This document shows positions 12,517-50,080 of a DNA stretch of 64,000 bases, in pieces. The DNA is from Eledone cirrhosa (taxonomy: Eukaryota): NCBI GenBank assembly GCA_964016885.1, contig OZ024743.1, positions 102,548,001-102,612,000 on the forward strand. Direction: 5' to 3'. The translations under genes and the position numbers were made by a program. Numbering within the stretch: position 1 is the first letter of the stretch; every line of letters starts with the position of its first letter. Below the pieces are notes generated by a model. It worked only from the letters and a program-made list of their open reading frames with translations. It ran no database searches and was not told the origin of the DNA.

Positions 12517-15500
12517 TCATCTTTCAACAAAATGCTGGGAAGGGAGCACTTCCCTCTCTACTCTGATTTTCCTTTTCAAATGAAATTTGAAAAAGTCAAT
12601 CAGGGCATCACCGAAGAGGTAAGTGCTCGTCTTCAGCCCTTTCAAACGTGTCCACCATACTATCTCTTTCGCCATGGCCACCAGACAGATAAAAACTGCC
12701 TGCCCTTCTCGGCTAAAGGAAGAGGGCGGGGAAATCCTCACGATGGACTCAGATGATAGCCGGATCCGTCCTACACGCGACAGCAGGTGTTCGACATAAA
12801 CCCACAAGTCAGCAATGCTCGGACACTGGACGAGTGCGTGCAGGACGGTTTCGTCGCCCTGCGCGCATCTCGGACATGCCCGGCTGACGGCACCTCCATG
12901 CCTGTAGAGTTTATGCCGAACTGGCTAGGCTCCTCGGTAGCACTGCCAGGCCAGAGATTTCTGGAAGTTGTCCATAGGTCCCGTCCCGAAAGTTCTTCCG
13001 AAGAGATTGGCTAGTTGATTTTCGTCGACGCCTAGAGTTTCCCCAAGTACGTCGTCGCTCTTCCCCTCCACTAATCCTCTATAGAACGCCGAGGTGGAGT
13101 TTCCACCGATCACATTGCCCGATTGGTCGAGGGCTGTGAGCGCCTGAAGACATTCCAGTCTCCAGGCACTCCCTCTCGGTCTTCGCTTGACCCAGGACTG
13201 CAGCTCCGTCAAGAAAACGAGCTGGGGAAATACGTGTCTAGCAAACGGCGACCACACCTTATCACCGTCGAGGAAGAGGTGGAGATGTCGTAGCCTGAGC
13301 GCGTGTCTGCGCATCATCAGCCACGGCATTCCCAGCCCACCACGTAGCGGGTGTTGACAGCAGATGGACCGCTTGACCATCGGAGCGCGTCCCTTCCACA
13401 AAAAGCGAAAGAGCAAACGCTCCAGCGCAGTCAGGCAGGGCTTAGGACAAGGTACGACGGTCAGGCAGTAGCAGATGACAGACGCGATGTCCACGTTAGC
13501 CACCTCCGCTCGACCTTTCACGGATAGCTTCCTCTCCGCCCATATCTGGGTGAGAGAAGCCACCCTGCTCGTCACCTCGTCCCAGTTTTTGTCCGTCTGG
13601 AGGTCCGGACCGAACCAGACCCCTAGCAATTTAACCGGTCCGTCCGTCCAGTGTCCGACGACGCTGTGGGACGGCATGGACCTGCCTCTCCAGGTGCCGA
13701 GCTGCAGGCCCACCGACTTTTCTTGCTTGATCATTGCTCCTGTCACTGCTTCGTATTCTCTTAGTGTAGTGCCGATCGCCTTGATGTGTTTGGCGTTCGA
13801 CACCACTACGGTGACATCCTCCGCATATGCTGACACGGATCTTCCGCATCCTAGTTCGCGCGGGACGCTCCTCAACGTCTCCAGTTTGTGCAGTAATGGC
13901 TCGAGAGTCAATACGTACAAGGGGGACGAGAGGGGACATCCTTGGCGGACCGTGCGCATGATGTTGAACGGTTCCGAAAGGTGACCGTTCACTCTCACCA
14001 CAGAGCAGATGTCGCTGTGCATGGCAGCGATCCAGCCTCTGAAGACGGGCCCAAAGCCAGCCGCCCTCAGGACTGCCGCTAGGTAACGATGGTCGACCCT
14101 ATCGAAAGTTTTCGACTGATCTAAATTGATCAAGGAGCCACCCGTGCCAGGTTCCCTAGCTACCCTCTCTACGATGTATCGCATGATGTGGAGGTTGTCG
14201 TGGATGGATCTGTCGGGAATGGCGCATGTCTGCGCCTCTCCCACTCCACCAGACCACCAACGACAAGCGCCAACCTCTTTGCTAGCACATTGGCCAAAAT
14301 CTTGAACTCTGTGTTTAGCAGGGTTATGGGCCTGAAATTATCTATGTTATACCCCTTGTTCGGATCCTTTCTCAGCAGTGCCATCGCTCCTCGGCTCACA
14401 GAACTGGGAATACTCCTGTTCTGTTGCCAGTTGCAGTAGACGTCCGCCAAGAGTCCTCCGAACAAGTCTGGCATCTGTACGTAAAGTTTATAGGGCAGAC
14501 CATCCAAACCAGGCGATTTACCCCTTGTGCAGCCAGTCATTGCCTCCCTTACTTCAGCGGCTGTTATCGGCTTTTCGCAACACTCCGCCTCAGTGGCCGA
14601 GAGCCGCGGCAGTCCGACGAGGTAGACACTAAAGTCCATTCTTCGTCCCGGCCCACCACTGCCCCCGAACAGCTGAGCGAAGTGTCGCTGAAAAGCTTCA
14701 CACATTTTCCCGGGATCGAGTAGCATGCGCCCATCGTGGTCCACCAAAGACCGGATCGTGGCTTTGTTGCCACGACGCGCCTCCGCCACTCGGGCCCATT
14801 GAACGGCTTTCGTCCCCTCGTGTCTGAGAGCACGCACCCGAGCTCTGACAACGCAGCCTTCGTGCTTTGCATTGAAGAATTGGTCAAGGGCCAATTTCGC
14901 CGCAAGCACGTCGGTCGCAATGCCTTTGCTAAGCGCCTCGTCTAATTTTCTAACTAGTTCTCCCTCTGCTCTATTTTTCTCTATTGCTAAAGCCTTACTA
15001 AACCTAATGGATTCTATTCTAATCGCTCTTTTCAGAGCAAACCACCACTTGTTGTTGACGATGGCCTATCTAAGTGAAGCACACAGATCACGAATTTGTG
15101 GTCCGTGTAGCTGACTATCTTGAATTGTGGACAGCGTATGCTAGACCTATCTATTTCCCTACAAAATACTCTATCTAGATATGATCTAGATGACCCTATG
15201 CGATTTGTCCAGGTCCACATTGGCACATTCGGGAAATCCAATCGGTACCTGTCAGACAGTTCAAAACGCCTGAGCAGGTTGGTGAGGCTCTTGCACTTAC
15301 CACCCTTATCCGCTAATCCCACACAGTCCCAGCGTGCATCTAAGATCCAGTTCCAGTCACCCACTAACACTAAAGAGCGGAACGTTCCAAGAAAGGTCTC
15401 CAGACACTGGAAGAAATCAGGCCACCCGGCTCCTGTCGGAGCATAGACGGCCACTAGCCTGAAAGCTTGCCCGTCTCCGCTGGTCACGTCAAGCACCACC

Positions 15501-17223: not shown

Positions 17224-18932
17224 GTTGAGCAAAATTATGAAGTCCTGTGAAACAGAGTTAAGATCGGGTGGAAAATCCTTGGGAGGCGTGAAGATCAAGA
17301 GAGGTACCTTCGAGGGAGATAGTTTGTCCCCTCTGCTGTTTGTCCTTGCCCTGATACCACTGACCATTATATTGCGAAAAGTGAGAGCAGGATACAAGTT
17401 GGGAAAAGGAGAGCTTATCATCAACCACCTCCTCTTCATGGATGATCTTAAACTCTTTGGGAAGAAATGAGAAGGATTTGGATGTACTTGTTGACACTGT
17501 CCATATTTTCAGCAATGATATATGTATGGAATTTGGTATTAATAAATGTGGAGTCCTAGTGATGAAGAGGGGTAAATCGAGCAGAAGCAACGGAATCCAG
17601 GTACCAACAGGTGAGATGATAAAGGAAATTGACACCAAAGAAGGATACAAATATTTAGGTGTTCTGGGGGCTGATGACATCAAGAACAAAAGAATGAAGC
17701 AATTGATAAGATCTGAGTACATTAGGAGTGTAAGAAGCGTATTAAGATCACATCTAAATAGTAGGAATCTCATAAGTGCAGTAAATTCCCGAGCTGTGTC
17801 TATTATTAGGTACACTGCGGGAATTCTGAAATGGGATGTTGCTGAACAAAAAGAAATGGATAGGAAGAGTAGGAAGCTATTGACTATCTACAACATGTTC
17901 CACAAGAGAAGTCATGTCGATAGATTCTACTTAAAGAGATCTGAAGGTGGAAGAGGTATTATCAGATGGGGAACAACAACCTACACAAATACGTGACTGA
18001 CAGTAGGGAGCCAGTGCTCAGAATTGTACTGAAGGAGAGGACAATAGACCAGGGGATGTCCAAGGAGGAAATAACAACAAGGAGGAAGAGCAATCTTCAT
18101 GAAAAATCCCTTCGTAGTACCTCCTTTGAGAAAACTGAATTTAGAGATCCACAGACATGGAACTAGTTGAAAAGAGGAGACCTTAAAAAGGCTACAGAAT
18201 GAATGCTAATGGCTGCGCAAGAGCAGGCCCTCGAAACGAAGTGGCTGAAACACCATATTTACAAAGAGGAGGCTAGTCCACTGTGTAGGATCTGTGGAGA
18301 GAGAGAGGAGACTGTGGCTCACATTGTATCCGAGTGTAAAGACCTAGCCCAGACTCACTATAAAGGCTGGAGACATGATGTAATGGGCAGGGTGATCCAC
18401 TGGCACTTATGCAAAGTAAACTATTTACCACATTCTGAGAAGTGGTATGAGCATAAGGCAGAGTCGGTGATAGAAAACGATCTGGTGAAGGTGCTGTGGG
18501 ATTTTAGGATACAGACGGACAAGAAACTGGAACACAATAGACCTGATCTGGTGGTTTTGGACAAGGAAAAAAGATCGTGCCTGATTGTAGATGTAGCCTG
18601 CCCATTCGACACGAGAGTGCAAGAGAAGGGGAGGGAGAACATTAACCGATACCAGGACTTAAATTAGGAGGTAAAACGGATTGGAACTGCCATGAAGTCA
18701 AAGTGGTTCCGATTATCATAGGCGCACTACGAACTATCTCAAAGAGTTTCCAAGGATGGTTAAAGAAAATTAGTCCAGCCCCGCTTTTTGGAACACTTCA
18801 AAAGGCATGCTTGCTGGTAACAGCAAAAACCCTCCGATACGTCCTGAATATCTGAGACTGCAGGTAGTGGCTTGATATTCATTTCAACAAACTTTCCAGT
18901 TAAATAACATCAATGACTGAGACTAAAAGAAC
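17224..18932 (+). mobile_element. 5'-truncated R4/Dong-like LINE (RT + CCHC + restriction-like endonuclease), disrupted
   Basis: GDSLSPLLF, HLLFMDDLKL, YKYLG, CRICGEREETVAHIVSEC, RHD, RPDLVVLD..IVDVACP. (AAT)n on both sides. Confidence 0.9.
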
Positions 18933-22354: not shown

Positions 22355-27200
<4,846 letters not shown>

Positions 27201-48100: not shown

Positions 48101-48132
<32 letters not shown>

Positions 48133-48154
48133 TGTTGTAGTAGTAGTAGAAGCT

Positions 48155-48208
<54 letters not shown>

Positions 48209-48229
48209 GTAGTAGTAGTAGTAGTAGTA

Positions 48230-50080
48230 GGCAGAAACTTGCAGCGGGGCGAGCGGACAGCAGCAGGATCATCAGAGGAAGAACTTCCATCATTTAAGTG
48301 TTTCGGCTGTTGATACTTACTGACACTTTAAGGCAGGTGGGTCCACCTATATCGTGACTTCTAGGTGCCATCCTGATGTTTTCTTCTCAGGCAGGATATG
48401 AGCCTGCTCAATTTTGACCATTCCTGGTTTACACAACTCGAGCAGGAAGATTATCAATAGAAAACATCACATCTATTTTAACTCCAGTCTTCCTATCTTA
48501 TTTCCAGTTCTCATTCCTCGTAAACCATAACCACATTGAAATTTGTCTCAGCTGACTCTGAGATGCATTTGATTGTTGGCCTTCTTTTCGAGATTTGATT
48601 GGCAGCTGACCTTGTAGTTTGGACATGGAGGACATTGTGACTAATCCTCGTGCACTATCTTCCACTGGTTTATTGTGCATTGATACTGCTCTCTTTTCAA
48701 CTCTCTAGCAATGTATTCGTACTTACTCATCGTGTAATCATGTTGTACATCTACCTGGCTCTCATAGGTGACTGTCAGTTCAATCACGATGACTCTGTCG
48801 GTTGCTTCTGATCATAAGATAGTATCTGGTTTTGTCCATTCTTGCTGGTAAATTCGGGATAATTCTTACGCCAGTCTGAGAGATCGGCAGATATTACCCA
48901 ATCCCCTCTTAGTACAAGAGGTTCTGTCCGAGCACCACTTTATGTTGTGGTATGTTTTCGGATCCACCCTATGTATTCCCATTCCCTTCTATAACGAATG
49001 TTAGGACTGAATCAGCGGTTTCAAGTTCCATCAAGTTCCAAAATGACTGAATCAACACTCCTAGCGCTCTGTTGTGCCTCCATGTGATTCTACCATTGAC
49101 AAGAGCTACTTTACATGAACTTAGTACGTACTCCATTGTTTGTGGATTATTCTTGCACAAAGAGTAACAAGGATCCTCTCCTCTTTGCCCCATTTCACGA
49201 GATTGGTCTACGATGGGAGCAGGTTGTGTGTGACTCGTCTAATGATGCTCACCTTGAGTGGTTCCAGTTGCCATACGTCTTTACATGGAAGCGATCTTTG
49301 CCTCATCCAAATTCGTCCACGGACCGTTTTTGAATTGCTGAATTGTTTTTGTGTACCTCTTTTTGTTCTCTTCATTCCTCACTTCCTGAATAACCAGATC
49401 ACGTCAGTCTTTAACTGTTGCTTTTGACCACTATTCCACATGGCCCGTGCCTAAGCCCTATCTTCTTGTCTTAGTATATCCAGTGACTTCTTTGCAGACA
49501 AATCTTTCTTAAGCATCAGCTGTGGCGTGCTGGACCTTCCACTTACTTCCTGTCTTTAGAGTGTGTGGTGATTCTCTGCCAACTTCGTCTTGGGAGTCTT
49601 CGAGTATCATCACTAGTTTTATTCTTCCAACATTGTACTCTTCTACACTGGATTTGAATGTCAACTTTAATTTAGCCTGTTGGCAACACAGGACAATATC
49701 CGTTAGCCCAGCGGGTACACCGAGCCATTTTGCAGTAAATTTAATAATTTTCCTCCCCATTGCCTCGACTGTATGAGACAAGCAGAGTTGAAAGCAACAT
49801 TGGCTTAAGCATGCGCTGGGGGCAACACAACTTTTCTTTCCCAGGCAATGGGTACAGTCAATCTTCAGACCTTCGATTGCTGTGTTAGCCGTCATATTGG
49901 TATCTTTCATTGAGTTATCGTATCATCTCCCCAGACGCTTCACTGTCTCTTCAGATACTGTTGGGATTCTTTGGTTACCCACATCAAAGCTGGTTCCTAG
50001 TAACACTTTCCCTTTCTTCAGAGAGACTTCTGGACTTCTGTTAAAAGGTCATTCAATACATGTCATTTTGTAATGAAAGA
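48230..50080 (-). mobile_element. 5'-truncated HERO/NeSL-like RLE LINE, disrupted
   Basis: KWLGVP, GSKWKVQHA, CSLCK..TMEYVLSSCKVAL.NGRITWRHN, KPDTIL..RVIVIELTV. Ends in a (TAC)n tail. Confidence 0.8.
48261..48329 (-). ncRNA. Candidate rearranged (non-circularly permuted) hammerhead in LINE 3' UTR
   Basis: aagtgTC-agtaag..cagcc-GAAA-cactt...cttcct-CTGATGA-tcct gctg. All three core strands and their helix partners are present, in non-canonical order. Confidence 0.6.

Follow-up and report, generated by a model that had tools for sequence, protein, structure and literature searches.

A hammerhead-like RNA fold with a divided core in the 3′ UTR of an R2-group LINE: covariation, copy structure and a possible role in retrotransposition

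Results

The LINE and its copies in the genome

The window, a stretch of 64,000 nucleotides from Eledone cirrhosa (assembly GCA_964016885.1, contig OZ024743.1, positions 102,548,001 to 102,612,000), contains at 48504-50039 on the minus strand the broken ORF of a 5′-truncated, R2-group (HERO-like) LINE. In tblastn, its fragments (50039-48504) match residues 409-929 of the intact relative P0001 with 39-48% identity and comprise the end of the RT region, the zinc knuckle and the restriction-like endonuclease (RLE), interrupted by multiple stops and frame changes. The RNA motif described below thus lies in the 3′ UTR of a LINE, as the initial annotation had stated. P0001 contains the domains RVT_1 and zf-RVT, and its closest PDB matches are R2 proteins (E 1e-31). 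The columns C..C, H, C and D, ELTV, K are conserved among the protein relatives, the named ones including Mytilus, Branchiostoma, Dreissena and Astyanax; we take these columns to be the zinc knuckle and the RLE motifs. A single ORF with RT, zinc knuckle and C-terminal RLE is the layout of RLE-type (R2-group) non-LTR elements. We presume that the element belongs to the HERO clade, and this label is plausible in view of the domain layout; named HERO sequences were sought in 10 supplements and none was found there. Two distant relatives, P0028 and P0030 (also P0025), appear by eye to carry a cysteine-protease (ubiquitin-hydrolase-like) tail past the endonuclease. Three more stretches of the window (14244-14564, 18284-18697 and 24736-25635) match P0001 weakly, in its RT or C-terminal region, and are fragments of other retroelements.

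The search of the genome with the window UTR as a query gave 41 matches from 40 scored candidates. This family (family A) is old, since its copies diverge from their consensus by a median of 15% and the window copy departs from it at 30 of 154 positions. A second, younger family (38 matches, 38 candidates) differs from its consensus by 2-6%; its UTR sequence is very unlike that of family A, yet the order of the core is identical. The (TAC)n tail noticed initially is present in the window copy but is not a property of the family: the remaining copies finish close to the same CTAC and diverge beyond it. A third family (L034, L048, L062, L066, L086-L089; G000) has a 3′ UTR longer by 250-300 nt which ends in a motif much like that of family A; the resemblance suggests UTR exchange or a common ancestor.

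The RNA fold of the window copy

The minus-strand letters quoted in the initial annotation were confirmed at their place. The whole fold spans 48379-48257 of the minus strand and is larger than the segment 48261-48329 first proposed, since four further helices, with strands upstream and downstream, are conserved; in all, six helices make up the fold. In 5′ to 3′ direction it begins with strand a (48368-48379), the partner of the strand directly after CUGAnGA; this helix has 12 bp in the family consensus, and 9 of the 12 were counted by hand in the window copy. Hairpin H1 (48344-48367; 78.6% of cells paired) joins strand a to G10.1 without a linker. Strand b (48339-48343), whose first base is G10.1, is the true 5′ strand of stem II; it lies about 20 nt upstream of the predicted cut and restores the G10.1-C11.1 pair. 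By hand count, two of its five consensus pairs are kept in the window copy. Strand c follows at 48332-48336.

Block S (48314-48328), delimited by the letters and the alignment, comprises the stem III strand (48328-48323), which ends in U16.1, then C17 (48322) and the stem I strand (48321-48314). By analogy with hammerheads, the cut is predicted at 48322|48321; the initial annotation had placed it at the same position, and the family data indicate it as well. Block G (48296-48309), delimited likewise, contains the 3′ strand of stem II ending with C11.1, GAAA (48304-48301) and the stem III partner (48301-48296). Strand c′ (48284-48288), the partner of c placed by covariation, lies just 5′ of the stem I partner (48283-48276), which runs into the core CUGAUGA (48275-48269). 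Immediately after A9 comes strand a′ (48257-48268), which according to covariation pairs with strand a and not with the strand preceding GAAA. The last approximately 30 nt of the element and the copy-specific (TAC)n run occupy 48101-48256, as judged from the letters and the comparison of copies, and the positions where copies end would put an internal RT start near 48229.

The family-A consensus has 6 bp in stem III, 9 in stem I, 5 in stem II (G-C first), 12 in helix a and, according to the alignment column table, 8 in H1; a linker pairing of UCAAG with CUUGA is also present in this family. The same arrangement was found in the young family, in which no pairing is possible between the strand preceding GAAA and the one after CUGAnGA, and the latter forms 12 bp with the far-upstream strand a; H1 follows downstream of a, then a G-initial strand pairing with the five bases before GAAA, and then c. 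Minimum free energy folding, in which pseudoknots are not possible, recovered helix a, H1 and stem I in one young copy. The window copy fails the strict S-G-C descriptor; it is a decayed, 5′-truncated product and is unlikely to be active.

Relatives and covariation

A scan of metagenome contigs provided the relatives: the best 79 of 427 confirmed loci, among 600 stretches, were used. The ORF end was present in 72 of these 79 loci, and 37 of the 72 passed the strict S-G-C descriptor. Core letters alone served to choose 48 of the 72, which gave 34 clusters; L196, L197 and L221 were removed for misplaced anchors and five rows were re-centred by eye. The final alignment, built without reference to structure, has 32 rows (31 distinct relatives and the window copy).

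Stems I, II (with the upstream strand), III and c are paired in 90.6% of 593 cells, and with their registers slid only 37-50% are paired. Double changes number 135 in these stems versus 36.6 in shuffles, and 136 versus 51.7 in helix a and H1 (79.6% of 426 cells paired); none of 500 shuffles reached the former value, a count that is not a probability because the rows are related and the structure was derived from the same rows. The case for the fold is carried by the effect size and the slid-register controls. Stem III, annotated initially as perfect, has all six pairs in the window copy, and stem I has five of its six inner pairs as described; both covary across the 32 rows, with 98.1% and 95.8% of cells paired, respectively, and double changes in eight of nine pairs. 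Pairing of strand c with c′ (76.3% of cells) includes double changes in four of five pairs.

Stem II is the point at which the first drawing of the motif fails. With the upstream strand, 93.6% of its cells are paired and G10.1-C11.1 is G-C in 26 of 32 rows. Helix II as initially drawn, between the strand preceding GAAA and the one following CUGAUGA, is paired in 49% of cells directly and in 46% with a 2-nt offset, compared with 45% and 53% in shuffles, and no direct-register pair was found in 38 of the 40 sequences passing the strict core descriptor. We have therefore rejected this helix, which is paired at the shuffle level. In a control in which the 3′ strands were exchanged between sequences and an identical register search was run, the five pairs of stem II were all formed in 15% of cases versus 27 of 32 rows, and at least seven of eight pairs of helix a in 20% versus 25 of 32. 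At least four of five H1 pairs were found in 22 of 32 rows (8% in shifted registers), and perfect or near-perfect fits of the direct helix II in only 2 of 32, with 13% in the strand-swap control. The covariation check proposed for three helices was accordingly passed by stems I and III and not by helix II as drawn. The helices and their covariation are direct observations, and there is hardly any doubt that the conserved six-helix fold is real.

From the best 79 of 427 loci, 66 had enough downstream DNA and the motif was found in 58 of them (37 by the strict descriptor, 15 by core letters, five by eye and one 745 nt downstream); it was not found in the other eight, three of which offered at most 334 nt for the search. 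The motif-bearing loci cover the main branches of a quick, unfinished tree used for spread only. Among the viral contigs, 36 pattern matches were obtained and none was confirmed.

Core and junction

The core motifs are kept across the 32-row alignment: GAnGA of the core, AAA and U16.1 are invariant, and C3 and G12 occur in at least 90% of the rows. The cleavage triplets are GUU (13), GUC (9), GUA (7), AUA (2) and GUG (1), so that N17 is U, C or A in 31 of 32 rows; N7 is free. The element thus has the hammerhead letters CUGAnGA, GAAA and NUH, covarying stems I and III on either side of the predicted cut, and a 10.1-11.1 pair which closes stem II beside G12 by means of the upstream strand. What departs from a hammerhead is the connection of A9, which is not covalently joined to 10.1 and is separated from it by helix a and H1. 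The blocks follow each other in the order S-G-C; the non-circularly permuted order recognized initially was thus correct and equals the published type SGC.

In 39 of 40 descriptor fits, with gaps penalised, the transitions from A9 to a′, from a to H1, from H1 to G10.1 and from C11.1 to G12 are free of linkers, which means that a perfect four-way junction replaces the A9-G10.1 bond. Stem II could stay stacked on the core while a stacks on H1 in the geometry of a stacked four-way junction. The RNA segments on the two sides of the cut are tied together by helices a, II, c and III, four of the six (about 28-30 bp), and the cleavage products would therefore be expected to stay clamped together. We consider it quite probable, judging from the letters and the pairing, that the fold cleaves itself at the predicted site.

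Rfam returned no ribozyme match at the window motif or in five related loci. Every catalytic letter of the hammerhead is present in a wiring of which we found no description: the open-access articles searched contained no tested hammerhead interrupted between A9 and G10.1, no ribozyme of this type in HERO elements and no insertion of a helix at A9-G10.1.

Some copies vary around the motif. L172 and L204 have an additional GAAA-bearing segment between strand c and stem III, possibly an internal duplication of block G, and L141 (G000:C3:196960000-196961000) has two partial motifs in tandem inside the UTR. By eye, a tRNA-like sequence is visible in the 3′ UTR just upstream in L198 (upstream of the motif) and L210.

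Copy structure and the predicted cut

Five copies of the young family hold the 5′ region. Four of them extend upstream across the cut, by about 24, 42, 521 and 809 nt, and the fifth, near-complete copy begins near +93; none of the five begins at +1. One repeat unit measures 3,599 nt. The copies stop in an AC-rich stretch at about +90 to +100, and since this stretch leads on into the 5′ region in complete copies, the apparent 3′ end looks like an internal RT start. A role in shaping the RNA's 3′ end or in limiting retrotransposition, as first proposed, fits poorly: of the 35 young-family rows that span the cut, 34 keep the site intact (no indel within 2 nt) and the rows extend past it by about 90-100 nt, and complete copies have this sequence again at their 5′ side.

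Head-to-tail copies with an intact site are seen directly. The motif is present at both ends in L091 and L143 (G000) and in L148, L149 and L153 (metagenome), with an incomplete 5′ copy in three of the five. Same-strand ORF sequence lies downstream of the motif in 12 of the 37 metagenome loci with at least 300 nt downstream (from the best 79 of 427), a proportion that collapsed repeats in contigs assembled from short reads may inflate.

Indels of at least 5 nt were counted over 611 nt, and 2 of 12 break at the cut, for which the chance was estimated by hand at about 0.01-0.03; one is an 8-nt deletion ending there and the other a duplication rejoining at +1. For family A, 5′ ends were counted in 54 of 72 copies after 18 had been set aside (10 that overran the 348-nt reference, six interrupted by insertions and two duplicates). 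Six of the 54 ends lie in the 7-nt interval that closes at the cut, versus 1.0 expected (P 7e-4; five and P 0.005 if one by-eye boundary is reversed), a modest pile-up given that other 7-nt intervals reach five and that this interval was picked after a first look. Three of the six lie at -1 or 0 and three at 5-6 nt before the cut. No clear pile-up was seen in the young family, in which ends lie at -42, -42, -36, -24 and -4 and a switch occurs at +5 to +7.

The two repeats of L091 have six variants in common versus 0.47 expected. A single ring does not easily account for L091: past the cut, 2 nt are deleted in its 5′ repeat but not in its 3′ repeat, two other copies have this deletion at their 3′ ends, and a third copy, 3.3 Mb away, has six variants in common with the L091 3′ repeat, five of which are absent from the 5′ repeat. 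Given the conflicting deletion and this mosaic sharing, the variants in common can be the result of gene conversion or recombination, and we do not regard them as diagnostic of a ring.

Several rearranged copies were also observed. In the short copy L135:196-500 (G000:C4:349016100-349016900), microhomology joins the tail after the cut, from +5 to +7 on, to an internal part of the ORF located 1.6 kb upstream; this is either a template switch or a later deletion. At the loci L116 and L124/L137 (G000), the 5′ part of one young copy is inverted, as in twin priming, and another has a short second copy in inverted orientation beside it.

Discussion

The closest relative of the motif in architecture is the type SGC hammerhead, represented by HRIMA-1 and a variant, for which cleavage was shown and which was found only in metatranscriptomes; according to the accessible part of that report, no type SGC RNA occurs in the genomes of known organisms (Eckert et al. 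2023, PMC10085705). Both RNAs have S-G-C blocks, a short linker between stems I and II, the full core, and an extra helix (c/c′ in the LINE) connecting stems I and II at their far sides. The differences concern block C, that is, CUGAnGA with its two neighbouring strands, which the same source assumes to be indivisible. In type SGC, CUGAnGA runs directly into stem II (PMC10085705), whereas in the LINE motif block C is split: stem II takes its 5′ strand from upstream of the cut, and a and H1 are inserted at A9-G10.1. Natural hammerhead cores tolerate insertions of one or two nucleotides (Perreault et al. 2011, PMC3088659); the variants in the part of that paper available to us are small (A6a, U13a, near C3), and none lies at A9-G10.1 or is helical. 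Type SGC is a cleaving RNA from metatranscriptomes (PMC10085705), while the LINE motif sits in an animal retrotransposon and its cleavage is predicted. Although the two would work alike, we do not file the LINE motif as type SGC because its block C is not intact.

The 5′ ribozymes of R2 elements have an HDV-like fold. The LINE motif resembles them in being an RNA of self-cleaving type (predicted here) in an RLE-type non-LTR element; they differ in fold, in the single 5′ copy and in a cut that forms the 5′ end (PMC13580325), whereas complete copies of the LINE cross the site. HERO is mentioned in the accessible portions of PMC4640811 and PMC13580325, which contain no ribozyme for it. With Penelope-like elements, exemplified by PAc (Frangieh et al. 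2024, PMC11167929), the LINE has in common partial tandems, a hammerhead within the repeat and an internal AC-rich end past the cut. Penelope-like elements have a telomerase-like RT, a GIY-YIG nuclease and a hammerhead of canonical order in pseudo-LTRs (PMC11167929); the LINE has an R2-group RT and a restriction-like nuclease. In retrozymes, a unit excised by hammerheads at its two ends is closed into a circle, which is then reverse-transcribed around its length (de la Pena et al. 2020, PMC7761336). Retrozymes are the model borrowed for the ring mechanism considered below and, as that source describes them, are small, non-coding and non-autonomous, with type I or III hammerheads and demonstrated circles, in contrast to a coding LINE of 3.6 kb with a predicted circle.

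We give about an even chance to a mechanism in which the ribozyme would cut out a unit-length RNA whose clamped ends would be rejoined, as a ring or a bridged nick, and copied from a start within the RNA. A source copy carrying a motif at each end would be transcribed and both sites would cleave; the 3′ end, supplied by the downstream repeat, and the 5′ end, supplied by the upstream repeat, would rebuild the fold and ligate to the unit-length ring or bridged nick. Target-primed reverse transcription would then begin inside the ring, about 90-100 nt past the cut, and cross the junction, and a processive RT passing its own start would generate the partial tandems. The RNA ring would be the weakest step. 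The broader proposition, that a protein-coding autonomous LINE clade across animals may retrotranspose via a self-cleaved, self-ligated 3.6-kb RNA circle, with a hammerhead core split by an end-clamping four-way junction, a fourth-strand arrangement beyond the six permutations thought possible, is tentative, and we would put it somewhat short of an even chance.

Copying that is independent of cleavage is the main rival and would account for much of the same evidence, although we consider it rather unlikely. The hammerhead would be active, perhaps slow or protein-gated, and the template would be an uncut read-through RNA from partial-tandem sources with an internal AC-rich start; cleavage would be separate from copying and would free the RNA from host transcripts, help translation or remove surplus. 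This parallels PAc, for which Frangieh et al. describe, in vitro, an internal AC-rich RT start and a dispensable hammerhead, mutants of which insert, with no reads ending at the cut (PMC11167929). Uncut read-through RNA with an internal start predicts partial tandems and an intact site equally well, and it accounts for the varying 5′ extensions, the unlike repeats of L091 and the AC-rich stretch in which young-family copies finish. Under this scheme the 5′ extensions would only shrink from generation to generation unless they were regenerated, yet they occur in distant lineages. The indels and 5′ ends at the cut also speak against it, since they suggest that RT meets a break there.

We regard as improbable that the fold is a non-catalytic, hammerhead-shaped site for the protein of the element, which would position the RT start while the junction at A9 blocks catalysis. 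Its location just upstream of where copies end and the intact site in nearly all copies would suit such a function, and the activity of a split core is a prediction only. A binding site would not be expected to keep all the catalytic letters while every helix varies in sequence, nor to avoid G at N17 in nearly every row and leave N7 free, as active hammerheads do.

The possibility that only the upstream copy matters and is cut to form the 5′ end, the 3′ copy being carried uncut, has a precedent in the R2 5′ ribozyme (PMC13580325), and three short family-A copies that begin at -1 or 0 and one metagenome contig that begins at +2 (maybe an assembly end) are in line with it. It is hardly probable, as the near-complete young copies do not start at +1 and four of the five cross the site; a start at +1 would lose strands a, H1, b and c and hence the 5′ ribozyme itself, and the identical 3′ copy remaining uncut would have no explanation. 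A compact hammerhead of three helices, serving to trim the 3′ end or to limit retrotransposition, as in the initial annotation, is very improbable in spite of its correct core order and cut site, since its helix II is at the shuffle level and trimming would lose the 90-100 nt which all copies keep and which contain the RT start.

The accepted view of non-LTR elements is that copying begins at the 3′ end of a linear RNA. If the mechanism with rejoined ends is correct, an internal start on rejoined or ring RNA would connect Penelope elements and retrozymes with the R2-group LINEs. The hammerhead core would, if the fold is active, tolerate a strand crossover at A9-G10.1, which the published six-permutation scheme rules out. 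The split core accounts for the failure of Rfam and standard descriptors to find the motif, and the present data place a predicted ribozyme resembling type SGC in animal genomes. A LINE copied in this way would also offer a clean system for studying the function of hammerheads in partial-tandem retroelements.

Two further sequence motifs recur near the ends of copies. In many families (L146-L220), a conserved TGTAT lies 10-15 nt before the copy ends, and a CCAGTGAC motif, 40-90 nt further on, opens the 5′ region of head-to-tail copies. These motifs are candidates for RT-start and promoter or binding signals.
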